64,000 bases of DNA. It comes from Pseudomonadota bacterium (GTDB lineage Bacteria > Pseudomonadota > Alphaproteobacteria > Rhodobacterales > Rhodobacteraceae). The stretch is taken from the NCBI GenBank assembly GCA_038531775.1, contig JBCBBI010000016.1, forward strand, positions 8,662-72,661, read 5' to 3'. Position numbers and translations under genes: made by a program. Shown here piece by piece: positions 7,586 through 64,000 of this stretch. The notes under the pieces are model-generated. The model was not told where the DNA came from, made no database searches, and was given only the letters and a program-made list of their open reading frames with translations. The stretch's first letter is position 1. Every line of letters starts with the position of its first letter.

Positions 7586-8359
7586 TCAGATACGGCCAAA
7601 TGCTGACGCAATCGTAGTCAAGGTATCAGGTTTTGCCGCGTAAATTGCTGTGCTTTGGTCGAAATAAAGCAAAACGCTCAGTAGATCCTCAGGCAGCAGT
7701 CCTTCGAGGACCATCATCCTGTAATCGCTGTCGACAAGTTTGATTTCGGATAGGTTTTTGCCAATCTCTCCGAATTTGTCCAACACTTCGGTTTTTAGAA
7801 GTAAAACCGTGGCAGGATCACCGCCTTCGCCCAAAATGGCCTCGTCACCAATCTCGATGCTAGCGATGCAATCATCGCCAAGAAACGCTTGAAATTGTTC
7901 TGCCAAACTTGGCGGAGCGGTGTCCAAATCCACATCCCATAATTCGGCCAATTTGCCAGGCGAAATACCAGCATCCGATTGCGCGGCAGCCTCAGGATCA
8001 AGGTTTCGGAGCAGCATAAGGGAACCGTCTTTGGCAACCAGGGAGACCAGCATCTCGCCAACTGTTTTAACTGCCTCTTCATCTTCCAACGAAAGGGTCT
8101 GCCCAAACACCTGCGAGTTCTGTGCCAAATCCTCTGTTGCGCTCGCGCAGGATCGCAAACGGCGGCCTACCACGCTTAGAGATACACGTGATGTACCCAC
8201 CGAAACATCAATGATCCTAGGCAAAATCGTGTTGTCTATAGCGCGAAGGATACCGGCCAAACCGATCTCAACATTCGACGAGATCAGTTTCATCGCACCG
8301 TTTTTGAAATCACCGGAGTCTGTAAGGTCCTTCAATTTGCGCTCGACATCATCGACCAT
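7586..8359 (-). CDS. Hypothetical protein; C-terminal part is Roadblock/profilin-like (inferred)
   Basis: 257-aa ORF starting 2 bp after the upstream gene; C-terminal alpha-beta-beta-alpha-beta-beta-beta-alpha pattern by eye. Confidence 0.65.
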   Translation of the reverse strand: MVDDVERKLKDLTDSGDFKNGAMKLISSNVEIGLAGILRAIDNTILPRIIDVSVGTSRVSLSVVGRRLRSCASATEDLAQNSQVFGQTLSLEDEEAVKTVGEMLVSLVAKDGSLMLLRNLDPEAAAQSDAGISPGKLAELWDVDLDTAPPSLAEQFQAFLGDDCIASIEIGDEAILGEGGDPATVLLLKTEVLDKFGEIGKNLSEIKLVDSDYRMMVLEGLLPEDLLSVLLYFDQSTAIYAAKPDTLTTIASAFGRI

Positions 8360-15658: not shown

Positions 15659-18154
15659 TTATCCAGCATCGCCCGAGTAAGTCAGCGAGACGACCCAAGT
15701 CGATCCATCGCGTGATACGGCAAAACTGAACTGTTCTTGTCCATTGGCCAACTCACGTTCGAAGATATCCTTGATTGTGGTACGGCCTTCAATTTTCTCA
15801 GACGTAGACATCAATGCGATGACCTGGTCACCAACTTGGAAGTTGTTTTCGCCACCGGCACTTTCAGTCACGTAGGTTTTCCAGACATCGTCTTCAAAGC
15901 GAGTGCTGAATTGCGTACCGTTAAGGAGGGCTGTTCCCTGAACAATCGGGATGTTCCACTCTTGCTCCGTGGCTGTACCGCCATTTGCGGGTTCAACAGT
16001 GAATTCCACTTTTTGCAGAGCGCCGCCACTTGGCTCAACTGTAGAGCGCAGGATGCCCTGAATATCGGAGATCTGGTTCACAGGCTCGCCATTTACCGCA
16101 ACAATCCGGTTTCCGGCAACGGCCCAAGCCGGCGCCGCAGTGTCAACGTCTTCGATAACGTTGCTACCGAAACTTCCAGAAAAAGGAAGTTCAATGGACC
16201 AGTTGGATAGCACACCTGCGGCCTCTGCCGGCGCTGAGCTTGGTGCAGCTGCAGGTGTTTTTTCATCCTGGTTGCTGACCGCTGCTACGACCTGTTGCTC
16301 TGGCTTGTCCGTTTCGCTTGCCGCAGTGTTTTGATCAGCTTCTTCACGCTGTCTCAAAATATCAGCAAACGTCTGGGCTGCAGGAGCTTGTTCTTCAACT
16401 TTTTCCCGTTGGGCTGCAATGTTGGCAGAAATTTCAAGCAGGCGCGCGGCCTTCTTTTCGTTTTCCGTAAGCTCAACAGGTTGCTCTTCGCTAACCTGTG
16501 TTTCCTTTTCAGCCGCATCTGCTGCGGCTTGACGCTCAGCCTCTTCTTTCGCTGCTTTTTCTGCAGCAAGGCGTTGCGCTTCGCGCTCGGCTGCGGCGAT
16601 CGCTGCTAAACGAGCCGCCTCTTCTTCGGCTGCTTTCGCCGCCGCCAACTCTGCCTCGCGTTGTGCAGCCGCTTCGGCGGCTGCTGCCTCTGCAAGGCGC
16701 GCTTCTTCAGCTTCACGCTCTGCCTTTGCCGAAGCTTCAGCTGCTGCAATTTCCGCCAAGCGTGCTGCTTCAGCTTCCTCGGCGGCGCGTTCAGCTGCTA
16801 GCTTGTCAAGACGGGCGGCCTCTTCATCAGCGGCTCGCTCAGCTGCAAGGGCCGCCAGACGCGCCGCCTCTTCTTCAGCTGCTTTTGCTGCGGCTAGGTC
16901 CGCTTCACGCTGAGCGGCTCTCTCTGCTGCCGCAGCCTCTGCAAGACGCGCCGCTTCGGCTTCTTGCTGTGCTTTTGCTGCTGCAGCCTCCGCTTCACGC
17001 TGGGCAATCTGCTCAGCACTATCTTGAGCGGGCGCGCTGGCTTGTTGGACGGGTTCTTCTTCCGATCCACCAAATGTACCCATAGCAAACATGCCGCCGA
17101 CGGCCAGAACTGCTACTGCAGCAACCGAGCCGAAAAGAACAGCGTTCGATGACTTCTTTTCCGACGCTGCGGTTTCGACAGCGGCAGACGACATAACAAC
17201 CGGGGATGTGACGACACGGGATTTACGGCGCGAGCCGTCAATCATCTCGAGCCATTCTTTAGCTGATTGAATACGGTCCTTTGGAACAATTTCCATCGCC
17301 ATATCGATCGCGGCAAGGAACTTCTTGTCGAAGCCTTTGACATTGTCAGAAAGCGGAACGTAAGGATCGTCTTCGCTTGCAGCAATAGCGGCGAGACGCG
17401 CTTGGCTGTTGGCGGGGATTTCTCCAGAGATCAGATGATAGAACGTTGCCGCAAGGGCATACAAATCACTTGAAGGCGTCTGAGTGCTGCCCTGAACATA
17501 AAATTCCTGTGGTGAGTAGCCGTCTTTGACAACGCGAAGCGCCGAAAGGACCCGGCTCTTCTTTGTTGCTTCCTCCCGCGCAGCACCAAAATCGATCAAA
17601 ACCGGGCGCAAGTCTTCGTCCAAGAGGATGTTATCTGGAGAGATATCGCGGTGCAGGATGTCTTGATCATGGATATAAGAGACCGCGCCAAGCACGTCTT
17701 TGAGAATACCTTTGATCTGTGGCGCGGTAAGTGTCTTTGCTGAATCTTCTAGTGTGTCGAGCAGATCACTACCTTCTACGAAATCCAGTACCATGTAGGC
17801 GGTAGAATTGTCTTCGAACACCTGGTGCACACCAACGATGTTTGGATGCTCCAGTTTGGCCAAGCTTCTGGCCTCTTGGACGAACAAGTCCACAACCGAT
17901 TTCAGTTCTTTCGTGTGGGCACGCGAACGAGGTGACACGATGGCACGAGACCGATGACAGAATGACGATGGGAAGCATTCCTTGATCACGACACGACGGT
18001 CCAAACTGTCGCGCGCTAGGTACGTGATCCCGAAACCACCGGAGTTCAGGAACTTCTCAATGGTGAATTGTCCCTGAAGGAGTTCCGTCCCGGGTGCCAG
18101 TTCATCGACGAAGCTTTCGTCATCTTTTGCTTGCTTTTTTTGTGCGTTGCCCAT
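15659..18154 (-). CDS. Hanks-type Ser/Thr protein kinase, single TM, Ala/Glu-rich stalk, PDZ-like C-terminus
   Basis: SGGFGITY, VIKE, HPNIV, HRDISPDN, DFG, YSPQE, SDLYALA; TM VLFGSVAAVAVLAVGGMFAM; GNRIVAVNGEPV and VGDQVIAL are PDZ-like. Confidence 0.92.
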   Translation of the reverse strand: MGNAQKKQAKDDESFVDELAPGTELLQGQFTIEKFLNSGGFGITYLARDSLDRRVVIKECFPSSFCHRSRAIVSPRSRAHTKELKSVVDLFVQEARSLAKLEHPNIVGVHQVFEDNSTAYMVLDFVEGSDLLDTLEDSAKTLTAPQIKGILKDVLGAVSYIHDQDILHRDISPDNILLDEDLRPVLIDFGAAREEATKKSRVLSALRVVKDGYSPQEFYVQGSTQTPSSDLYALAATFYHLISGEIPANSQARLAAIAASEDDPYVPLSDNVKGFDKKFLAAIDMAMEIVPKDRIQSAKEWLEMIDGSRRKSRVVTSPVVMSSAAVETAASEKKSSNAVLFGSVAAVAVLAVGGMFAMGTFGGSEEEPVQQASAPAQDSAEQIAQREAEAAAAKAQQEAEAARLAEAAAAERAAQREADLAAAKAAEEEAARLAALAAERAADEEAARLDKLAAERAAEEAEAARLAEIAAAEASAKAEREAEEARLAEAAAAEAAAQREAELAAAKAAEEEAARLAAIAAAEREAQRLAAEKAAKEEAERQAAADAAEKETQVSEEQPVELTENEKKAARLLEISANIAAQREKVEEQAPAAQTFADILRQREEADQNTAASETDKPEQQVVAAVSNQDEKTPAAAPSSAPAEAAGVLSNWSIELPFSGSFGSNVIEDVDTAAPAWAVAGNRIVAVNGEPVNQISDIQGILRSTVEPSGGALQKVEFTVEPANGGTATEQEWNIPIVQGTALLNGTQFSTRFEDDVWKTYVTESAGGENNFQVGDQVIALMSTSEKIEGRTTIKDIFERELANGQEQFSFAVSRDGSTWVVSLTYSGDAG
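16601..16951 (-). repeat. Internal 34-aa duplication in the kinase stalk
   Basis: ARLAEAAAAE(R/A)AAQREA(D/E)LAAAKAAEEEAARLAA at 16850-16951 and 16601-16702. Confidence 0.85.
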
Positions 18155-27925: not shown

Positions 27926-29095
27926 CTACGGAGAGCAGGCTGTTGTGTCTGCTCCGATTGCCGTCAGTGCCGAACACGCATCAAGAACGCGCGTTTCGTT
28001 CTTGATGTCAACAGCGTCAGACAAAGCCTGGCCAACATCTGTTCTCGAAAGGCTGGAATTCTCAGCTAGCAGCAATGCTACTATACCCGTCACGTGAGCC
28101 GTGGCAATAGAAGAGCCCGACGCGAAACGGTGGCGCTCTCCTGGCGCCGTGGTGATAACATCTCGCATTGGCGCCGGTATACGATCCGAGCGACCCAAAC
28201 CGGCCGCTATGACACCGGACATAGAAGCTGGAAAGGCGTTACGGTTTCGTCCTTCACCGGAAGCCGCAATCACGATCATTTCCTTGGCAAGCGCGGCTTC
28301 GATTAACTCCCTTAAAAGAGGGTCTTCTGTTCCACCAATACTTAGGTTGAGCACATCTACATCGTTTAGGATTGCAAAGTTTATGGCGCGCGCGAGCGAA
28401 AAGCTATTACAGCGACCGATCTGACCTGCCGCTTGCCAACAAGCGCGGAGACCCAGAAGCCGCGCCTCTGGCGCGACGCCAACGATCCCCACGGCATTTC
28501 CAGCACTTGCCGCTATAACGCCCGCCACAGCCGTGCCATGCTCCTCCGCTGGGCGAGACGGACCGGCAGCAACAAAATCATGGGCGCTGTCCATGCGGTC
28601 TTTGAGATCTTTGTGAGTGACATCAATGGCTGAGTCCACGACTCCAATCCGGATGCCTTCCCCAAGGGAGATCTGATGCGCTTTGGCCACATTGATTTCA
28701 TTGAGCGCGTTTTGCAGAGGATACAACGGATCGGTGTAAAACGCCTCAGTGGTTGTAAAGTCCTGAATCCGTTGTGCGGTTCGAATGCGGCTGTCTTTTT
28801 CCATTGCATCTATCAATGCTTGGATATCAGGCACCTTTGAGGCGTCAAACACAAAACAGTGTACACCGATGGCCTTGAGTGGCCACTCTGCAGCGAGAGG
28901 TACATCGTAGTCTCTTGAGATGTCTTTTGCTATCAGGGCGAGAGCGGCTGGATCATCGTCTGGCACCGTCAGGATGAGATACGTGTCTCCGCGTAGATTA
29001 TTGGCATCAACAAGGTTCCACTCAGGTGCTTTTGCACATGCAGAAAGGGTGAGGAACAACAGGGCTGCAAGGGTTCTGATCATGAAACCAATCAT
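27926..29095 (-). CDS. S8 (subtilase) serine peptidase, predicted lipoprotein
   Basis: Lipobox LSAC; triad VVDS, HGTAVAG, SGSSIA; usual oxyanion AAGN reads AASGE. Confidence 0.85.
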   Translation of the reverse strand: MIGFMIRTLAALLFLTLSACAKAPEWNLVDANNLRGDTYLILTVPDDDPAALALIAKDISRDYDVPLAAEWPLKAIGVHCFVFDASKVPDIQALIDAMEKDSRIRTAQRIQDFTTTEAFYTDPLYPLQNALNEINVAKAHQISLGEGIRIGVVDSAIDVTHKDLKDRMDSAHDFVAAGPSRPAEEHGTAVAGVIAASAGNAVGIVGVAPEARLLGLRACWQAAGQIGRCNSFSLARAINFAILNDVDVLNLSIGGTEDPLLRELIEAALAKEMIVIAASGEGRNRNAFPASMSGVIAAGLGRSDRIPAPMRDVITTAPGERHRFASGSSIATAHVTGIVALLLAENSSLSRTDVGQALSDAVDIKNETRVLDACSALTAIGADTTACSP

Positions 29096-29730
29096 GGCCC
29101 TTCCGGTGCTGCGAAATCAACCTCTGGCAACGCCATCAATAGATCCGCTATGGCCATAGCGTCACCGTCTTTTGGCACGTTCACCGTGTAAATACCTGCA
29201 TCAGTTGGACCTGACAGGTTTGTGAGACCGTGTTCAGCAATAATAGCGTTCAATCTGTCGTCTTTTAATCCCGGCACAGGCTGAAATTTAATTACCGCCT
29301 CAGCCTGTTCTGCGGCAGTTGTTAGCGTGACAAAGCCATCCTCGCCCGGACCTCCAAACTGTACCACCACAAACAGACAAACCGCTGCTGTTAAGCCAGT
29401 TAAACCAAGCGCTCCAGCATTGCGACCAGCAAACCACCTACGCGGCTCGGATCGCGGTGCACGTGCCACAGTCTCTGTATCAAGCTGCGCACGTATTATT
29501 TCCCAACTGCGCACTCTTGCTTGCTCAACCGGTTCTTCAACAGCAACTTGGTCTGCCAAAAACCTCTGACGCTCGATTTCTGCCTGGCAAACTTCGCAGC
29601 TTGCGGCTTCACGTTCGAATTGCTGCACTTCAGCTTCGGGCAAGGAGCCGTTCACATACCATGGGATCATGTCCCAAACCTCGTCAGAGCATTGTCTGGC
29701 TAGGGGTGTTTGATCATCACGCAAATTCAT
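29092..29730 (-). CDS. Anti-sigma factor (zf-HC2-like N-terminus, TM, C-terminal alpha/beta domain)
   Basis: MIPWYVNGSL...EAASCEVC; TM ALGLTGLTAAVCLFVVV; overlaps both neighbouring genes. Confidence 0.8.
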   Translation of the reverse strand: MNLRDDQTPLARQCSDEVWDMIPWYVNGSLPEAEVQQFEREAASCEVCQAEIERQRFLADQVAVEEPVEQARVRSWEIIRAQLDTETVARAPRSEPRRWFAGRNAGALGLTGLTAAVCLFVVVQFGGPGEDGFVTLTTAAEQAEAVIKFQPVPGLKDDRLNAIIAEHGLTNLSGPTDAGIYTVNVPKDGDAMAIADLLMALPEVDFAAPEGP

Positions 29731-30319
29731 TTTGTGCACCCTTGCTGTAAGCCTCGTCCGACAACAGATCGCGCAACCTGTTGCGCGCCGTCATCATACG
29801 GGTCTTTACGGTCCCAACTGGACATTCCAAAATTTCGGCGATTTCTGTGTAAAGATAGCCATTGTAATACGTAAGCTCCACAACCGCGCGAAGCTCTGGT
29901 TTCAGTTGTTTAAGCGCTTTCGTCACGTCCTGTGCTATCGCCAACTGCTCTACATGATCTGCATCATCACTTATCAACGTTTCATCCAACTCAACGTCAC
30001 CTTTCCGCAGGCCAAGCTTTTGGCGCTGCTTCATCGACATGCGGTAGGCAATGCCAAAGATCCATGTTGATGGCTTAGAACGGCCTTCAAATCGATCGGC
30101 GGTGCGCCAAACCGTCATTAGAACATCGTTGGCAACTTCTTCCGCTGCTTCGTTGCTATCTGTAATCCGGCGGGCGAAATGCATTAGTTTCGGAAAATAC
30201 TTACGGTGAAGCTGCTCAAAAGCCGCAACATCGCCTGCCGCAACGGCGCGCAACAGGTCCCCATCACTCATGGTTGACGAAGATCGGGATGTTCCAAGGA
30301 TGGTCTTGAGCAATCGCAT
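29717..30319 (-). CDS. ECF sigma-70 factor
   Basis: Region 2 AEEVANDV...RFEGRSKPSTWIFGIAYR; region 4 YTEIAEILECPVGTVKTR. Confidence 0.92.
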   Translation of the reverse strand: MRLLKTILGTSRSSSTMSDGDLLRAVAAGDVAAFEQLHRKYFPKLMHFARRITDSNEAAEEVANDVLMTVWRTADRFEGRSKPSTWIFGIAYRMSMKQRQKLGLRKGDVELDETLISDDADHVEQLAIAQDVTKALKQLKPELRAVVELTYYNGYLYTEIAEILECPVGTVKTRMMTARNRLRDLLSDEAYSKGAQNEFA

Positions 30320-30348: not shown

Positions 30349-30377
30349 TGTGTGGCGCAGATCACGCAAAAGGTTCA
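30349..30377 (-). promoter_or_regulatory. Candidate ECF promoter TGAACC-N16-CCACACA
   Basis: Upstream of the ECF gene; same spacing as the motifs at 30616 and 60242. Confidence 0.45.
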
Positions 30378-30615
30378 GCGAACCTGAAAAATTTTTTGGT
30401 GTGCTTGTTTTTTGTAATGGAGTTCGTTTGAAGGATAGCATACGAAACCAATCGGCTAAATCAGATTTGATCACTTCGGCCTTCAGATCGCTGGAAATTA
30501 CCTCGTTCACCATTCAGTATTCAAAAGCGTATTTCTTTCGAGGCGGGTCGCGCGCTTGATTTCTGTAGCGAGCAGCGCGCGGCCGGAGGTGGGACAAATT
30601 CTTTTTCGATAACGA

Positions 30616-30644
30616 TGAACCTTCTGCCCATTCCTCAGCACTCA
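30616..30644 (+). promoter_or_regulatory. Candidate ECF promoter TGAACC-N16-GCACTCA
   Basis: Ends 54 bp upstream of the likely DMT start (ATG 30699). Confidence 0.35.
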
Positions 30645-30698
30645 CAAAAAGCATTGGTGGCTAGGCCATCCTTTAGACCGGCAAAGAAGAGTTCCAAA

Positions 30699-31745
30699 AT
30701 GACAAATGCAGTTGCAGCAACAAGCCCTGAGCGATCACACGTCCTTTACGGAGCGCTGCTCGTCTGGGCGGCAGTGTTCATATACGCTTCATCGAATTCC
30801 ATTGTCTCGGCCCTGGCTCATATCGGTTGGCAAAACAAGATTGACGGCCGCAACGCCATTTCCTTTTGCAACCTGCTTTTTCTTGGCTCGCTGATCTCTC
30901 TGGTGCCTATGTGGTTCATGTTTCGCAAAGACTGGACCCGCGAAAACCTAAGGAAGGTCAGTCGCAAGGATTGGGTCGTTCTCACGATCTCGGCCGGACT
31001 GTCCTCGGCGCTCACGCCATATCTTTTCTTTATTGCTCTGGACGCGACGAGCGTGACGAACGTGGTACTGGTAGGCCGCATTGAGCCGCCGCTATTCCTC
31101 TTGGCGACTGTAATCTTTCTAAAAGAGAAACTCGACGTCTGGGCGCTGATAGCCGGGCTCGTGGCTCTGGTAGGCGCTGTTGTCATGTTTGTTATGAACA
31201 GCGAAACCGGCTTCACTCTCGGCAAAGGTGAGATCGCTACAGTATTCGCAACACTGTCTTTTATCGCATCAACCCTGATCACGCGAGCGGGTCTGCAGGG
31301 GATACCGATGGGGATTTTCTCAATCTACCGCTGCGTGCTTGGCACAATAATTTTCTACTTTCTTGGACTTTACCTCTACGGACCCGGCCACTTTCAGGAT
31401 CTGCTGGAGCCTATCGTCCTGAAATGGGTCTGGGTCTACGCGATCGTCGTGATCCTGTGTGGTCAACTGGCATGGAACTTCGGGCTCAAGCATGCGAGGT
31501 CGGGAGATATCTCGTTGGCTACATCCTTTTCCCCGCTGGCAGCCATTGGCCTTGCGATGTTGATCCTGGGAGAAGAGCCTGGTCCGGGCCTAATCCCCGG
31601 AGGAGCGATTATTCTGATCGCCATTGGCATTGGTCAGTTCGCCCGTTTGCGCGCGCACGCTGCTGATCGGCTTGAAACCAAAAGTGAGCTGAAACCCGAA
31701 GAAACGTTAAAAGCGGAAGGCAAGATAAACTTTAAGGGGGCGTGA
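30699..31745 (+). CDS. DMT/EamA family transporter
   Basis: About 10 TM segments in two EamA repeats; AAGAAGAG before ATG 30699. Confidence 0.85.
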   Translation: MTNAVAATSPERSHVLYGALLVWAAVFIYASSNSIVSALAHIGWQNKIDGRNAISFCNLLFLGSLISLVPMWFMFRKDWTRENLRKVSRKDWVVLTISAGLSSALTPYLFFIALDATSVTNVVLVGRIEPPLFLLATVIFLKEKLDVWALIAGLVALVGAVVMFVMNSETGFTLGKGEIATVFATLSFIASTLITRAGLQGIPMGIFSIYRCVLGTIIFYFLGLYLYGPGHFQDLLEPIVLKWVWVYAIVVILCGQLAWNFGLKHARSGDISLATSFSPLAAIGLAMLILGEEPGPGLIPGGAIILIAIGIGQFARLRAHAADRLETKSELKPEETLKAEGKINFKGA

Positions 31746-58984: not shown

Positions 58985-59521
58985 TCAATTTTTGAAACCA
59001 AGTTTACCAGGTGCGACATTGATGAGTTCATACATATTTACGTTATTGCTCAGATCGAGTTCGCTTTGTGTCGTGTCTATCCAAACGCCAAAGTCAATCA
59101 AGTTCTTGTACTTCGAAGTAATGTAGGCTCCACGGCAAAAAATCTCGCCTGCTGCTATGCTGGGCCAGTTTATGCGCCTGGTGTTTGTGCCCACCATCAG
59201 TGCGACGCGCGTTGGCTTACTTGGCGCAAAGCCGATATTGCGCACGCAGATTCTGGCAAAGCCATCATCGCTATAGCTGGGATCTTCCGGCAGCAGGTCA
59301 GGCTTGAAGATAGCTTTGTGCTTGGTCCCAAAGGGTTTTGCTTTACGGTTTGATTTTTGATCGCGCTTTGAGCGCCCTTCTATTTGGGCCGTTTCAGCCT
59401 CGCTGAAATTGGCGCGGCTGTTTTGCTCTTTCGCCTCAGTGCCAGGCAATGTCGCCATGGCGGTTGCAAATGAGAGCGACGTGAGGATTACATTGGTTTG
59501 CATCGGAATGATCTTTTCCAT
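58985..59521 (-). CDS. Secreted CARDB (Ig-like) domain protein
   Basis: Signal-like N-terminus; PDL...VRNIG...WID...E.D.SNN; start is 59521 or 59503 (the longer ORF runs through a terminator). Confidence 0.6.
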   Translation of the reverse strand: MEKIIPMQTNVILTSLSFATAMATLPGTEAKEQNSRANFSEAETAQIEGRSKRDQKSNRKAKPFGTKHKAIFKPDLLPEDPSYSDDGFARICVRNIGFAPSKPTRVALMVGTNTRRINWPSIAAGEIFCRGAYITSKYKNLIDFGVWIDTTQSELDLSNNVNMYELINVAPGKLGFKN

Positions 59522-59670: not shown

Positions 59671-60180
59671 TCAGCACTGATCCTGTGCAAAGTTGTTCGT
59701 GACACTTTCCTCTTGCATGGCGTCGAAATGATCTGCGCCTACCAGAACCGTGAAGCTTTCCTGGTTAAATGGATGCGGCACAGCGGCTGTGATCAGCACC
59801 TGTTTTTTGCGCGGCACGATCGGAACGGAGACCGTATAATAGGTGGTAGAGCTACCCTGAAACCCGACATAGGCATGAGACGCAGGGGCCATCTTGTCGC
59901 CGATATTCTTGACGTAGAACTGAACCGTTGAGGGTGAGTTGCACATGCCACCGCGTGCTGGCGTAACGATCAGATCCGGCAAAGCATTTTCATACTCATT
60001 GCTCACCAAATCGCCGCTGGCAGAGCGTGTTCTAGGGGCGCGCAACTGTTGTTGTCCCACCGATTTCTGGCTTACGCCTTTCTTACGAAGTTCTGCGGCC
60101 TCGGCGGAAACGACAAGGCCACTGACGATAACTGAGGCCGTCAGGGTGGAACGAATGATGTTGGCGATGATGCGGTTCAT
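59671..60180 (-). CDS. Secreted CARDB (Ig-like) domain protein
   Basis: Signal peptide (AEA-A); LPDLIV...VKNIG...GAD....EES.TNN. Confidence 0.75.
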   Translation of the reverse strand: MNRIIANIIRSTLTASVIVSGLVVSAEAAELRKKGVSQKSVGQQQLRAPRTRSASGDLVSNEYENALPDLIVTPARGGMCNSPSTVQFYVKNIGDKMAPASHAYVGFQGSSTTYYTVSVPIVPRKKQVLITAAVPHPFNQESFTVLVGADHFDAMQEESVTNNFAQDQC

Positions 60181-60213: not shown

Positions 60214-60242
60214 TGTGTCGTAAGCACCCCGCCGATGGTTCA
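60214..60242 (-). promoter_or_regulatory. Candidate ECF promoter TGAACC-N16-CGACACA
   Basis: Ends 33 bp upstream of ATG 60180; matches the motif upstream of the ECF gene at 30319. Confidence 0.45.
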
Positions 60243-60277
60243 AAAAGATTCTAAAACTCTTTAAATTCGATTTTTGC

Positions 60278-61759
60278 TCAGCAACCGTTCGACTGAACAA
60301 GCCCGTAGCCGAACTTTGTGTCCCTGCCAGATGCGCCAATGTCGCGCACGTTCTGACGCAGCGCTTTGCGAGCGTTGTTGATCGAAAACGCCCCACGTGC
60401 GGCCCGGCGCGCTAGAAGACCAATGACAAGGGGAGCCGCAAAGGATGTGCCAGACTGATAAGACGCCCCGGCCCCTTTGGCCGAATAGATATCGACACCG
60501 GGGGCCGCGAACTCGATATGCTTTCCGGTGTTTGCTTTTCGGAAGAGGCGACCTGCCGCGTCGACGGCTGTGATAGCAATCACCTCGGGTGCCGCGGCGG
60601 GGTATTTTGGTTTCGACGAGCGATCATTGCCCGCAGCGGCGATCATAACCATTCCCTTGCTCGCAGATAGCGTAAGGATACGACCCATAGTCGCATTGGG
60701 TGGCCCAGCAAAGGACATGTTCACCAGCCGCACACGCTGGCCCGCTAGCCAGCCAATACCTGCGGCCACGTTCTCCAAGCGCCCGCCGTTGCGTCCCTTG
60801 GCATTGCTAAAAGCTGCCGCCGCAAAGACCTGCGCACCTGGTGCGACGCCAATAAGAGGACCTGCAGCCGGCCCACCGGCGATGAGGGCCGCCACCGCTG
60901 TTCCATGATCGGCACCAACATGACGCTCGCCCGCGCTCAGCACAGATTTTCGTGTGACAGAGACGCCCTTGAGCGCCGCATGATCAGTATTGACCGGTCC
61001 GTCGATCACGCCCACACGCACCGCACCGCGCAATCGGCAGACCTTCGAAGGGTCATCGCCCAGCATCTTCGAATGATAGAGCCGCGGGCCCGAAGATAGC
61101 CGATAAATATGGTGCAAATCGATAACCGCCGTTGATGCCACGTTTTGCAAAGCCGCCCGCGCCTGTTGCAAGGTTAGATTGCCGGGAAAGGCATAGAACT
61201 GCATCTGCTGACCCAGGCCAGGAATGTTGCGCGTGCGTAGAAGCTGCGCACCGACGCTCTGCATTGCATTTGCTGCGGCATTTGCTTGCCCAGTGGAGAC
61301 GGTCAGCGCGTATTCGGACGAACCGTCCGGCGCCGAAACCACATCGCTGCCAGCGCGTTTGCTCTTGGTGGTGCGGCTCTTGCGCTCTGGCCTGTTGGAT
61401 GCTGCGTCGCTGCATATCTCCAAGCGCCCTAGTGTCAAAGCAGACGTGCCAGGTCGTTCCCAAAGCATTGAGTACATCGCCCCTTCACTGAGCCCACGCC
61501 GAGGTATGACGACAGAGATGCGCCGAATTGACCACCTCGTTGCACGCGCCACTACAGCCGGGCCCGATCCTGTGAGAAGGATCCGGCCCGAAGGGCTGCG
61601 GCCAAAGCCGGGGCCTGTTACTGTAGCCGTGGCCCCAAGAGCATAGCAGTCGGACCGATCAAGCCGGTACTGGGCTTGGGCGTCTTGCGATAAAAGCACA
61701 ATCGCAAACGCCGCCAAAATGATATGGGCAAAACTGTGCATATCATTCGACGCTTTCAA
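60278..61759 (-). CDS. Secreted S8 (subtilase) serine peptidase with N-terminal IPT/TIG-like domain and propeptide
   Basis: Signal peptide (AQA-Q); VTGPGFG; VIDG, HGTAVA, AAAGND, SGTSFAAP. Confidence 0.9.
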   Translation of the reverse strand: MKASNDMHSFAHIILAAFAIVLLSQDAQAQYRLDRSDCYALGATATVTGPGFGRSPSGRILLTGSGPAVVARATRWSIRRISVVIPRRGLSEGAMYSMLWERPGTSALTLGRLEICSDAASNRPERKSRTTKSKRAGSDVVSAPDGSSEYALTVSTGQANAAANAMQSVGAQLLRTRNIPGLGQQMQFYAFPGNLTLQQARAALQNVASTAVIDLHHIYRLSSGPRLYHSKMLGDDPSKVCRLRGAVRVGVIDGPVNTDHAALKGVSVTRKSVLSAGERHVGADHGTAVAALIAGGPAAGPLIGVAPGAQVFAAAAFSNAKGRNGGRLENVAAGIGWLAGQRVRLVNMSFAGPPNATMGRILTLSASKGMVMIAAAGNDRSSKPKYPAAAPEVIAITAVDAAGRLFRKANTGKHIEFAAPGVDIYSAKGAGASYQSGTSFAAPLVIGLLARRAARGAFSINNARKALRQNVRDIGASGRDTKFGYGLVQSNGC

Positions 61760-62345
61760 TCAGCCGGGTGCGTTGTTTCAAAGCAGAAAGAGCAGCAGTG
61801 CGCGCTGCCTCGTCGGTTGCCGCCAGCGTGTAGAGGCCGAGTGCGGAAGGCCCATCGATGATCATAAGATCAAGCTCCAACATTAGTGCACGAATTTGCG
61901 CCTCGGTCGCATCGGGGTTGAAGGCCACGACAAGTGTTGGACCGACGCCAATGCTTTCTTCCTCGCCGGCAAGTTCAAATCCACTGCCGTCGCTCAGGCC
62001 AAGATAAGCCGTCTGCGCGATGAAAAGACCAAAGACGACCATCGCTGCAATCTTCCAGAAACGCGGTGGGGCAGGTATATTGGCGGCTGGTGGTGCCGTC
62101 ATCGTCTCGGCCTCGATATCGCGCAAAAGCCGGGCTAGACCAAACTCACCTGGGGATTGTACCTCGGCTTCTTTCTGCATGCTCTCGCGCATGGCCTTCA
62201 GCGCCTGGAGCTGTGCCTGAAGATCAGGATCAGCATCTACGGCAGCCTCGACTGCCTCGCGCTCCTCACCTTCAAGCGAACCGTTTGCTAAAAAGACTAA
62301 AAGCGCCTCCACCTCTTCGCGCGGCATATCGAATTGCTCGGTCAT
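61743..62345 (-). CDS. Anti-sigma factor (Cys-free zf-HC2-like N-terminus, TM, C-terminal alpha/beta domain)
   Basis: LLVFLANGSLEGEEREAVE; TM FWKIAAMVVFGLFIA; ATGA overlap with the ECF gene. Confidence 0.8.
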   Translation of the reverse strand: MTEQFDMPREEVEALLVFLANGSLEGEEREAVEAAVDADPDLQAQLQALKAMRESMQKEAEVQSPGEFGLARLLRDIEAETMTAPPAANIPAPPRFWKIAAMVVFGLFIAQTAYLGLSDGSGFELAGEEESIGVGPTLVVAFNPDATEAQIRALMLELDLMIIDGPSALGLYTLAATDEAARTAALSALKQRTRLIESVE

Positions 62346-62899
62346 GTCCGTGCCTCCTTCATCCGGGCCTCAAGGCAACGAAGAAGCAGCTTTTTAGCGT
62401 GAAAAATGCGCGTTTTGATCGTGCCTTCGGGAACCTCAGCGGTCTCTGCGATCTGGCCGTAGGACATGTCTTCATAAAAAGCGAGTTCCACCGCTGAGCG
62501 GTGCTGCGGCTTTAAGGTCTCCATGCAAAAGCGTAGGTGCACCGCCTCTTGTGCCACCGCAATGCAGGTTACCGCATCGGGCGTGTCGTCCACCGTTTCT
62601 TCCATTTCGTCAGTCAGATCGGTTCGTGAGTGTTTGCGAAAATGATCCATTGTCTTCCTGTAAGCGATTCCAAAAACCCATGTTTTGACGGTCGACCTGC
62701 CCTCAAAGCGCGATGCTGAGCGCCAGAGATCAATGAAAACGTCATGGAGTATGTCGGAGGACTGATGCGGATCGTTCAATTTCGATTGGATAAATCTGTA
62801 GACGGGCTTCTCAAGCGCCTTGTAAAGAGCCGCAAAGGCCGCGCGATCCTGCGCGGCCACGCGGGCCATCAAGCTGGCAAGCTCAGTATTGTCAGTCAT
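62342..62899 (-). CDS. ECF sigma-70 factor
   Basis: RFEGRSTVKTWVFGIAYR; YGQIAETAEVPEGTIKTRIFHA. Confidence 0.92.
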   Translation of the reverse strand: MTDNTELASLMARVAAQDRAAFAALYKALEKPVYRFIQSKLNDPHQSSDILHDVFIDLWRSASRFEGRSTVKTWVFGIAYRKTMDHFRKHSRTDLTDEMEETVDDTPDAVTCIAVAQEAVHLRFCMETLKPQHRSAVELAFYEDMSYGQIAETAEVPEGTIKTRIFHAKKLLLRCLEARMKEART

Positions 62900-62926: not shown

Positions 62927-64000
62927 CTACTTCAACTGGCGCTTTGAAGATACTGCTATAGGCGTACCCGCCCCGTCGAACGCCACCACGTACCAAAACA
63001 AACGCGTCTCCGTATTCAGACGTCGAAGCGTGAACTGGCGCAACAACGCCGATGTCTGCCTGCTCTCAATGGCCGCAAGAAAATCACGGTCAAGACCGAC
63101 GGCGTCAGTCCGGCTGAATTCAACGCGGTAACGTGCCGCTCCTGGTACAGGTTGCCAGGCAAAACGCGTGGCCCCTTTGACCCCAAAGCCAGGCGGCGGA
63201 GACAGGAGGTTCACGTTCTTTGCTGCCGGTTCTGCTGCGTCCGGTTCAACCACGCTGTAGCTGATAACCTCCAATGGAGTCGGGCTCAAACCTAGTGTGA
63301 CAGCTTCCGGTACAAACCGCACCTGATATAGGCCTGGTCTGTCTGTTCGAAGATTAGGGCTTTCAAAAACCGTCCGAACCGCGCCGGAGAGGCGCCGGGA
63401 CACCCGCCCAATCGGTCTGAACGCGGCAGAACCAGTCGGACCAGAAACCTCCCACCGTCCGGCAAAACTACCGCGACCAAGCGACGAAATCTCTAGCCTT
63501 GCATTCAGTGCATCGCCGGATTCAACCACTGCAAAACGGCTGTCATCGTCAAAGATCAACTCCAAATTCCGAATGGAGAGCGATCCGCCCGAAGATGGCT
63601 GCAAAGAAATCGTTCCGGGGATGGGTCCATTGGTGGCGACGGTCGAACCAAAGCTGCGGGTGTAGGTGCTTGGACCAGCCGCCCCAATCGCCTCTGCTGT
63701 GTTCCGGTCAATAAACAGCCGTTCTGTCAGAGTTATCGTTTCAGTTTGACCAGCGCCAGGGCTTGGCACCCGTTTCGATAAACTTCCACCCAAAGTGACC
63801 CCCGTGCTCGTCACGCCGCTTGCAGAAGACACCGTTTCCGCGGCGGGACCAAAAAAGTTTAGCCTAATCGTCCATCTTACCGTGATTGCACTGGATCCGC
63901 CCGGGTTCACTCGAACAGTCGCGGGCGCAGGTGATACAGAAACAACGACGGCTTGTGCGTGGGCGCTTTGTAGCGAAAGGAGAAGCACAAAAGTTGTCAG
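62927..64000 (-). CDS. Secreted beta-sandwich (Ig/FN3-like) protein, start outside the window
   Basis: Frame open to the window end; signal peptide end (SAHA-Q); C-terminal FAWQPVPGAARYRVEF...WYVVAFD is FN3-like. Confidence 0.7.
   Translation of the reverse strand: MTTFVLLLSLQSAHAQAVVVSVSPAPATVRVNPGGSSAITVRWTIRLNFFGPAAETVSSASGVTSTGVTLGGSLSKRVPSPGAGQTETITLTERLFIDRNTAEAIGAAGPSTYTRSFGSTVATNGPIPGTISLQPSSGGSLSIRNLELIFDDDSRFAVVESGDALNARLEISSLGRGSFAGRWEVSGPTGSAAFRPIGRVSRRLSGAVRTVFESPNLRTDRPGLYQVRFVPEAVTLGLSPTPLEVISYSVVEPDAAEPAAKNVNLLSPPPGFGVKGATRFAWQPVPGAARYRVEFSRTDAVGLDRDFLAAIESRQTSALLRQFTLRRLNTETRLFWYVVAFDGAGTPIAVSSKRQLK

Follow-up and report, generated by a model that had tools for sequence, protein, structure and literature searches.

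A subtilase-prodomain-like domain in the anti-sigma factors of a conserved sigma/anti-sigma/subtilase triad

In the sigmaE-RseA system of Escherichia coli the site-1 protease is DegS and the site-2 protease is RseP, and in the sigmaW-RsiW system of Bacillus subtilis these roles fall to PrsW and RasP. In the SREBP pathway a cut by the S8 subtilase S1P (SKI-1) is followed by a cut by S2P, a member of the M50 proteases and of the RseP family. Free-standing propeptide-like proteins of the POIA1 and ORF2 type, for their part, bind in trans to a subtilase, which afterwards degrades them. Here we describe two operons in a stretch of 64,000 nucleotides from a Rhodobacteraceae assembly (GCA_038531775.1, contig JBCBBI010000016.1, positions 8,662 to 72,661; the whole stretch is called the window below), each of which encodes an extracytoplasmic function (ECF) sigma factor, a membrane anti-sigma factor and a subtilase of family S8. 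The periplasmic C-terminal domain of the anti-sigma factors looks like a subtilase prodomain, as judged from a match to the Pfam family PF22148 for copy 1 and from the fold matches of a structural model for copy 2. This propeptide-like domain is the main new result, and it suggests a new kind of gene switch that is thrown by a protease cut.

A subtilase in the neighborhood of an ECF sigma factor has been described for ECF54 of the Actinobacteria, where subtilase, carboxypeptidase and CHAT genes occur in the gene context and regulation by proteolysis has been proposed (PMC8999054), and this was the only subtilase-linked ECF group found in the literature. The main text of the ECF reclassification (Casas-Pastor 2021) names no group with an S8 context, which its group catalogue may nevertheless list. 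Likewise, no published description was found of an ECF/anti-sigma/S8 triad with a propeptide-like anti-sigma factor, although the gene context could be listed in that same catalogue. The triad is a widespread and apparently unstudied variant of ECF signaling.

The anti-sigma factors and their prodomain-like domain

All genes of the two triads lie on the minus strand. The first triad consists of an ECF sigma factor of 200 aa (29717-30319), an anti-sigma factor, AS1 (29092-29739), and a subtilase of 389 aa, S8_1 (27926-29095). AS1 has 215 aa if read from a GTG and 212 aa if read from the ATG at 29730; the latter start agrees with database protein P0001 and leaves an overlap of 14 nt with the sigma gene. 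The junction between AS1 and S8_1 is an ATGA overlap. In the second triad, the sigma factor (62342-62899, 185 aa) and the anti-sigma factor AS2 (61743-62345, 200 aa) share an ATGA overlap, and a gap of 1 nt separates AS2 from the subtilase S8_2 (60278-61741, 487 aa). The open reading frame of S8_2 extends further (60278-61759, 493 aa), and its true start is likely the ATG at 61741, in agreement with database protein P0130 (487 aa), which begins there. Since the genes overlap or abut within each triad, each triad can be taken as one translationally coupled operon. An earlier note on this DNA had described two operons in the order ECF sigma factor, anti-sigma factor, S8 peptidase, and both are indeed present, with overlapping or abutting genes. 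The motifs by which it had linked them were recovered as well, as DRFEGRSKPSTWIFGIAYR and SRFEGRSTVKTWVFGIAYR in the two sigma factors and as WYVNGSL and FLANGSL, two versions of (W/F)xxNGSL, in the anti-sigma factors; the latter is an ordinary first-helix motif of anti-sigma domains and nothing special.

The middle genes give weak matches to zf-HC2, RseA_N and the NCBIfam anti-sigma families. AS1 itself has a weak zf-HC2 match (E 0.007) and a partial NCBIfam anti-sigma match, and when the members of the anti-sigma family were scanned singly, zf-HC2 was matched by 22/64 and RseA_N by 8/64. These genes encode single-pass anti-sigma factors of class I (anti-sigma domain, ASD), with a helical domain, one transmembrane (TM) helix and an overlap with the sigma stop. 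The subfamilies of AS1 and AS2, referred to as type 1 and type 2 from here on, are built alike: an N-terminal helical anti-sigma domain is followed by one TM helix, a linker of 15-35 residues and a C-terminal domain of ~65 residues, which has an invariant GPxxxG(I/L)Y hairpin common to both subfamilies. The chain stops 1-8 residues past the last strand of this domain, about where a cleaved propeptide ends. An AlphaFold2 (AF2) model of AS2 made from a 64-sequence alignment (predicted local distance difference test, pLDDT, 83) has four N-terminal helices, a TM helix at residues 96-117, a low-confidence linker that is predicted to be disordered (pLDDT 44-61) and the C-terminal domain at residues 137-199. 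The edge of the TM helix carries a conserved motif, W-(Q/K/R)-x-A-A-(A/V), with Trp in 78/81 sequences and Ala in 76/81, and we take this Ala-rich edge to resemble the region of the site-2 cut and ClpXP tag of RseA, and also RsiW.

The two subfamilies differ in their cysteines. The anti-sigma domain lacks Cys throughout the AS2 subfamily, AS2 included, so AS2 is not of the zinc-binding type. The orthologues of AS1 in Yoonia, in Tateyamaria and at locus L091 of the survey described below have the zinc motif HxxxCxxC, and AS1 has ExxxCxxC in its place, which puts it outside the zinc-binding anti-sigma class and implies that the His ligand was lost in this genome. The AS1 orthologue of locus L090 is also without the canonical zinc motif.

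The C-terminal domain of AS1 occupies residues 147-215 (29095-29301). The whole protein matches Pfam PF22148 (Fervidolysin_NPro-like) at E 7.9e-5, and the domain alone does so at E 8.2e-6 with 26.6 bits, above the gathering score of 21, over profile positions 21-80 of 81. Among the 64 family members, PF22148 was the sole recurrent family other than anti-sigma families (10/64 at E<=0.1). The corresponding domain of AS2 (residues 135-200; 61746-61943) has no Pfam match on its own at E<=10, and neither C-terminal domain has a significant sequence match to I9 (PF05922). For AS2 the assignment comes from the modeled fold, beta-alpha-beta-beta-alpha-beta, which is predicted with a pLDDT of 93-98. 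A Foldseek search of the PDB with this domain ranks POIA1 first, a fungal subtilisin inhibitor of the propeptide (I9) family, and it assigns a probability of 0.94-1.00 to the EpiP prodomain, pro-subtilisin E, the propeptides 1scj_B, 3cnq_P and 1spb_P and the chaperone ORF2 (3wqb_B). The root-mean-square deviation from the propeptides is 2.3-3.1 Å over 63-68 columns, at E-values that are all at least 0.036 and with RRM and ACT folds interleaved among the matches. Further linking the two copies, a hidden Markov model (HMM) built from the type-2 C-terminal domains alone recovers the type-1 domains at E 4e-13 to 5e-6, so that the Pfam assignment made for type 1 and the fold assignment made for type 2 concern one homologous domain.

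This same evidence has to be weighed against a plainer explanation, in which the anti-sigma factor ends in a ferredoxin-like domain of a general kind that serves dimerization or senses something else, and the subtilase is mere cargo that makes no contact with the anti-sigma factor and is only co-expressed with it. The fold is very common, and the Foldseek scores of RRM, ACT and dimeric alpha-beta-barrel proteins are about level with those of the propeptides; no significant profile match links the domain to the cognate prodomains, and none links it by sequence to the PDB. Many ECF operons, moreover, carry their main target gene. What speaks against this explanation is that PF22148 lies above the Pfam threshold for copy 1 and is the one extra family that recurs, that the fold matches of highest probability are all subtilase propeptides or inhibitors, and that the domain and a cleaved propeptide stop at about the same point. 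To these may be added the distribution of the genes discussed in the next section, in which the anti-sigma factor and the S8 gene are present or absent together. We consider mere co-expression improbable on balance. Read instead as prodomain-like, the domain also bears on a wider question, as signal sensing by ECF anti-sigma factors is unexplained for most groups, and the sensor domain described here points to a partner, namely the co-encoded subtilase.

The anti-sigma family is large. A word-index search found 169 homologues of AS2, and an anti-sigma profile run with HMMER against 1.84 billion cluster representatives gave 12,654 matches at E<=0.001, 4,872 at E<=1e-10 and 489 at E<=1e-30, the family being counted in clusters at 50 % identity. 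The best of the matches listed are nearly all 185-230 aa long and align from end to end.

Conservation of the triad and its subtilases

Both sigma factors carry only regions sigma2 and sigma4 in about 180-200 aa (Pfam Sigma70_r2 and r4_2 for both, together with Sigma70_ECF for sigma 1), which is the makeup of the ECF sigma factors (group 4). With the NCBIfam profile for the sigma70-ECF superfamily, TIGR02937, they score 87.8 (sigma 1) and 81.7 bits against a cutoff of 42.9. The nearest NCBIfam subfamilies, PRK12515 and SigK, give 121-144 bits, far under their cutoffs of 226-258. The solved structures nearest to sigma 2 are SigK of M. tuberculosis (4nqw, E 1.7e-20) and the RpoE of 2q1z (E 2.5e-17), which we take to be R. 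sphaeroides RpoE-ChrR. Sigma 2 and most type-2 sigma factors have two Cys residues ~14 residues apart (…VTC…RFC…) between regions 2 and 4, and a redox-sensing Cys pair is described for SigK (ECF19) in the ECF reclassification paper.

To gauge how far the arrangement extends, a synteny scan was seeded with the sigma factor alone, with one genome taken per species; 571 relatives were obtained and the best 80 were kept, mostly from Rhodobacterales, with Kiloniellaceae, Pelagibius, Sneathiella and Algimonas in addition. In 74 of these 80 loci, the sigma gene is followed directly, on the same strand, by a gene for ~200 aa and then by an S8 gene. The order sigma factor, anti-sigma factor, S8 was also seen at seven loci from five genera that were checked by hand and have unrelated flanking genes, and the triad is present at all five type-1 loci, the window included. 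Among the six exceptions, loci L041 and L072 end at a contig edge, L080 has no more than 900 nt left beyond the anti-sigma gene, L067 has an anti-sigma gene without an adjacent S8 gene, and L073 and L075 have neither gene, the sigma gene there being followed by an opposite-strand operon for a cation/proton antiporter (Mnh-like, by eye). Two or three of the six are truncated contigs. The sigma-seeded set thus contains 74 loci with both genes, two with neither, none with the S8 gene alone and two with the anti-sigma gene alone. An order that recurs to this extent with differing flanks is not due to chance, and the survey of triad synteny that the earlier note had called for comes out in its favor. 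The triad is a real, conserved and widespread module, and the loci inspected are alphaproteobacterial. One locus, L051 (WNWL01000002.1), comes from an assembly titled Oceanobacillus sp. HTM 045 and has a triad of the Rhodobacterales type with a sigma factor 57 % identical to that of copy 2; the assembly is probably mislabeled or contaminated.

The coupling of protease and anti-sigma factor that the earlier note had envisaged gains support from the two lines of evidence together, as the two genes are gained or lost jointly in the sigma-seeded set and the sensor domain is subtilase-prodomain-like. To judge from their sequences, protease and anti-sigma factor look functionally coupled.

The same note had the triad duplicated into two variants, and this is an overstatement. 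The sigma factors of the two copies are 39 % identical and the subtilases 30 %, and a BLASTP alignment of AS1 with AS2 covers only 38 residues, which lie in the C-terminal domain. A recent, redundant duplication in this genome would account for the gene order and the sigma motifs common to both triads. It can be set aside as extremely improbable, since the identities are low and each copy has nearer orthologues elsewhere: the nine relatives of copy 1 found in the word-index search come from Yoonia, Tateyamaria and metagenomes, and the 169 of copy 2 from Roseovarius, Ruegeria, Nioella, Pararhodobacter, Rhodophyticola and others. The subfamilies differ, in addition, in their zinc motif, their oxyanion residue and their neighboring genes. 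On these sequence comparisons the two triads are old, diverged paralogues, each with its own orthologues in other genera.

Both proteases match Peptidase_S8 of Pfam (S8_1 at E 4.9e-29, S8_2 at E 2e-30), and the Asp-His-Ser triad in subtilisin order is kept in 82/82 S8 sequences, both window copies included. The oxyanion Asn (Asn155 of subtilisin BPN') is found in 76 of the 82, S8_2 among them, and three type-2 proteases have Thr or Leu at this position; the type-1 residue is considered below. The nearest solved relatives of S8_1 are AK.1 protease and subtilisin BPN'. The best NCBIfam scores of the two subtilases are to the processing proteases mycosin, QhpE and PatA, and these lie far under the cutoffs. 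In one Roseovarius assembly (locus L004, 6608-7922) the S8 gene is split into two open reading frames; it is intact in the otherwise identical loci L003 and L005, and the split is a frameshift or an assembly error.

S8_1 consists of a signal peptide with a lipobox, LTLSAC (LSAC), a pro-region of ~120 aa and the catalytic domain. The AF2 model of S8_2 (pLDDT 92) contains a signal peptide, a seven-stranded beta-sandwich at residues 25-110, a prodomain at 141-215 and the catalytic domain at 242-487. The prodomain is modeled as beta-alpha-beta-beta-alpha-beta and is I9-like, and the best Foldseek matches of S8_2 are unprocessed pro-subtilisins, aligned over 380-430 columns that span prodomain and catalytic domain (E 1e-20 to 1e-17). 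On this model S8_2 brings its own propeptide in cis, to which the anti-sigma factor would add another in trans; for S8_1 we infer a cis-propeptide from the sequence. To judge from these features, the triads encode pro-subtilisins that are either periplasmic or anchored by a lipid. The pro-regions of both proteases have no Pfam match at E<=10. The earlier note had one protease as a lipoprotein and the other as Sec-secreted with an IPT-like domain, and both statements hold in part. S8_1 has its lipobox, which is not shared throughout the subfamily, as only two of five type-1 orthologues have one. S8_2 has the Sec signal peptide and a modeled beta-sandwich, and residues 31-121 of its 493-aa open reading frame match no Pfam family, TIG/IPT included, at E<=1, so that 'IPT-like' is a guess at the level of the fold. 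This extra N-terminal domain is missing in many orthologues, including those of Roseovarius and Sedimentimonas.

Promoter candidates and neighboring genes

A candidate ECF-type promoter, TGAACCTTTTGC-N-CCAC (30352-30377, minus strand), precedes sigma 1 at a distance of 33 nt. The sequences upstream of the type-1 sigma factors have the form TGAACC(T/A)TT-N14-(C/G)(C/G)AC, which also stands before the sigma gene at loci L001, L002 and L091. The motif first came to notice in type-1 loci and was later recognized downstream of S8 genes and at the start of an extended cluster. When the sequences before the type-2 sigma genes were searched without bias for two-block k-mers, no motif rose above the shuffled controls. 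In the window, TGAACC-N16-SSAC has three matches against 0.57 expected. The loci together (890 kb) contain 43 copies of the motif on the operon strand against 12 on the opposite one, and in 27/81 loci it is found within 800 nt downstream of the S8 stop. The genes that it precedes encode secreted proteins, namely a family of ~339 aa, small Cys-rich proteins (115-146 aa) and CARDB proteins. On this sequence pattern, TGAACC-N16-(C/G)(C/G)AC is a shared ECF-type promoter candidate that would mark local target genes of both copies. The use of nearly the same motif by both subfamilies makes cross-talk at the promoter level plausible; to that extent a suggestion of the earlier note that the two variants may cross-talk gains support.

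The second match in the window is a divergent copy (30616-30641, plus strand) that faces a gene for an EamA-type transporter. As called, this open reading frame (30615-31745, plus strand) starts with the ATG at 30615 and encloses the motif. Translation may in fact begin at an in-frame ATG further on (30699; MTNAVAAT...); the motif would then lie ~60 nt before the coding sequence, and the transporter would be a putative target of sigma 1. The third match (60217-60242, minus strand; TTGAACC-N16-CGAC in full, annotated at 60217-60244) lies between the S8_2 stop and a gene for a secreted CARDB-domain protein of 169 aa (59671-60180, minus strand; CARDB at E 2.3e-7), which begins 37 nt downstream of the motif and is the probable target of this promoter candidate. 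Next after the CARDB gene comes one for a secreted protein of 178 aa (58985-59521, minus strand; gene call in locus L088), which has no Pfam or NCBIfam match. A looser match with a 17-nt spacer, TGAACCCGCAAATGGCGGTACAGCCAC (15969-15995, minus strand), lies within an open reading frame (15659-18154) and is probably there by chance.

Directly upstream of sigma 2 lies the 3' part of a gene for a secreted protein of 364 aa, X (62927-64000, minus strand), which is cut by the window end. In locus L088 (5277-9419), triad 2 ends a same-strand cluster that encodes a secreted 144-aa protein, a CARDB protein of 155 aa, a protein of 609 aa and the 364-aa X, and an ECF-type motif stands 60 nt upstream of the first gene of this extended cluster (5277). 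The cluster occurs in the genome of the window itself, and the 609-aa protein and X are found upstream of the sigma gene in about 24 of the loci examined, including those of Kiloniellaceae, Pelagibius and Sneathiella and of the most distant lineages; X homologues lie directly upstream of it in 23 of these loci, singly or, often, as a tandem pair. For neither protein did Pfam, NCBIfam or PDB searches return anything usable. They give no support to the idea that the 609-aa protein forms an outer-membrane barrel, and this is not claimed here.

The small Cys-rich secreted proteins (115-146 aa) that follow type-2 S8 genes have a common motif, GNAGAS-x-P-AC-x-x-HV-x-x-AC. Their gene is the first after the promoter motif at ten loci (L007, at 7922-8296, L022, L027, L029, L032, L033, L049, L052, L061 and L065). 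The secreted family of ~339 aa is a second recurrent target and occurs in Ruegeria and at loci L013, L035 and L042. In type-1 loci the motif recurs around the triad, in three or four copies, one of which stands before an RTX-like gene in Yoonia and one, in Tateyamaria, before the HAMP and kinase genes at the approach to a type VI secretion cluster. At three of the five type-1 loci (L002, 7826-12675; L090, 6802-10633; L091, 5871-9717) a gene for a PG_binding_1 protein overlaps the S8 stop and is followed by genes for a Tll0287-like/HAMP protein, a Ser/Thr kinase and the type VI components ImpA_N, VipA and VipB. A copy of the type-1 motif stands before the HAMP gene in L002, and copy 1 of the window is without PG_binding_1 or type VI neighbors.

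A possible proteolytic switch and its relatives

We suggest, as a tentative reading that is the likeliest of those considered but that we rate somewhat below an even chance, that the anti-sigma factor docks its cognate protease through the propeptide mimic and that cutting of the mimic starts the release of the sigma factor. The subtilase would be exported, process itself and then dock on the mimic, so that it stays quiescent at the inner membrane with a propeptide bound; translational coupling of the genes would supply subtilase and anti-sigma factor at roughly 1:1. A trigger would then make the subtilase degrade the mimic, in the way released subtilisin propeptides are degraded, and this shortening of the anti-sigma factor on its periplasmic side would amount to the site-1 cleavage. 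An RseP-type site-2 protease and cytoplasmic proteases would remove the rest. A shortening followed by a site-2 step is in keeping with the disordered linker and with the conserved motif W-(Q/K/R)-x-A-A-(A/V) where the TM helix ends. The freed sigma factor would fire TGAACC-N16-(C/G)(C/G)AC promoters at the head of the operon and before neighboring genes for secreted proteins, with the EamA-type transporter (copy 1) and the CARDB protein (copy 2) as predicted targets in the window. A single cut would in this manner both unleash the protease and turn on the regulon. The more specific proposal that the anti-sigma factor displays a propeptide decoy on which the subtilase is parked inactive, until one signal-dependent cut arms the protease and frees the sigma factor in a bacterial counterpart of S1P/S2P, is one that we put forward with considerable doubt.

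Several observations weigh against docking and cleavage of a mimic. With regard to the domain itself, every Foldseek E-value is 0.036 or weaker, and RRM and ACT domains, which have the same ferredoxin-like fold, stand in the same list. A sequence profile of the C-terminal domain had no match among all PDB chains even at E<=10, and hhalign comparisons with the pro-regions of the cognate proteases were not significant either locally or globally (E 0.012-0.55), so the comparison gives no sign of the mimic having been copied from the adjacent protease. AS2 stops one residue past its last strand, so that it may lack the kind of tail with which a propeptide reaches into the active site. With regard to the protease, S8_1 and all other type-1 enzymes (5/5) have Glu in place of the oxyanion Asn, in the codon after AASG; slow or poor turnover is predicted from this, which would fit a regulatory rather than a digestive role. 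The protease has a prodomain in cis, and a second one is therefore unneeded for folding. Loci L067 and L080 keep the C-terminal domain of the anti-sigma factor without an adjacent S8 gene. A site-1 protease that is co-transcribed with its sigma factor is, moreover, a positive feedback with no obvious brake, and the public sequencing runs that contain the region are DNA metagenomes only.

On this evidence the protease could equally well be the regulated output, with the anti-sigma domain as its inhibitor or sensor. The protease would then serve the maturation or turnover of the co-regulated X, CARDB and Cys-rich proteins, and the mimic would be a membrane-tethered inhibitor or chaperone and a feedback sensor. 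Bound protease would shield the anti-sigma factor from a housekeeping site-1 protease and keep the sigma factor off; once the protease is titrated by its substrate or lost, the naked domain would be degraded and more protease made. This reading rests on the same synteny and prodomain evidence as the one preferred here, and translational coupling suggests the 1:1 complex that it needs. Known inhibitors or chaperones of subtilases include I9-like partners that act in trans, two of which, POIA1 and ORF2, are among the fold matches. The subtilases score best, if far under the cutoffs, against the processing proteases mycosin, QhpE and PatA, the promoter-marked neighbors encode secreted proteins, and negative feedback is more stable than positive. 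Yet this reading depends on a putative housekeeping site-1 protease, the S8 gene lies inside the sigma operon and not behind a separate target promoter, and the short tail of AS2 speaks against classical inhibition at the active site. No computed result separates these readings, mere co-expression included, and we think of the protease as output as possible but unlikely.

If the protease does cut the mimic, a new protease class and a new principle of recognition, propeptide mimicry, would be added to the proteolysis of anti-sigma factors, and the triad would be a compact, probably orthogonal, protease-gated transcription switch for use in synthetic biology. Should the decoy proposal hold, the domain would represent an undescribed class of anti-sigma sensors, and the subtilase would be the first to act as a site-1 protease on a bacterial anti-sigma factor. 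If the mimic inhibits the protease instead, the triad would couple protease homeostasis to transcription in a new way. Either way, a working annotation becomes available for many proteins of marine Rhodobacterales and their relatives that are now called 'hypothetical' or 'zf-HC2 domain', and a promoter motif is defined together with its local candidate targets: secreted CARDB, Cys-rich and RTX-like proteins and, in certain genera, genes at the approach to a type VI cluster.

Among described systems, those of RseA and RsiW share with the triad an ECF sigma factor held by a single-pass anti-sigma factor, the predicted succession of a periplasmic trimming and an intramembrane cut, and promoters with a GAAC element at -35 and a short -10. 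They differ in that the candidate site-1 protease here is a subtilase (S8) encoded in the same operon, and not an S1C protease or PrsW. The sensor domain here, unlike that of RseA, is propeptide-like and not gated by RseB or by outer-membrane protein (OMP) peptides, and the cleavage steps here are predicted ones. The nearest solved sigma factors are those of the SigK-RskA (ECF19) and RpoE-ChrR (2q1z) pairs, and orthologues of copy 1 have, as a further likeness, a zinc-type HxxxCxxC anti-sigma domain; the anti-sigma factors described here have neither an RskA nor a cupin C-terminal domain, and the NCBIfam subfamily scores of the sigma factors are far under the cutoffs. ECF54 resembles the triad in having an ECF sigma factor with a conserved neighboring subtilase, but it belongs to a different phylum and has no anti-sigma factor, and its protease was proposed to act on the sigma factor itself (PMC8999054), whereas a canonical membrane anti-sigma factor is present here.

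The C-terminal domain has its closest counterparts in subtilisin propeptides, in POIA1 of Pleurotus and in ORF2, the external chaperone of the Aeromonas sobria serine protease; it shares their fold, to which copy 1 adds its match to PF22148. Unlike the free-standing proteins among these, it forms part of a transmembrane anti-sigma factor, so that transcription would report its binding or degradation; unlike classical propeptides, it has a shorter C-terminal tail and no significant match to I9 or to the propeptides in the PDB. With the SREBP pathway the triad has no homologous substrate in common, recognition here would go through the propeptide mimic, and the site-2 step is putative, so that the comparison is one of analogy. 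If our suggested reading is correct, the logic of the two would be the same: a cut made by a subtilase in the lumen or periplasm would license a second cut by an M50 protease, and a transcription factor would be set free.

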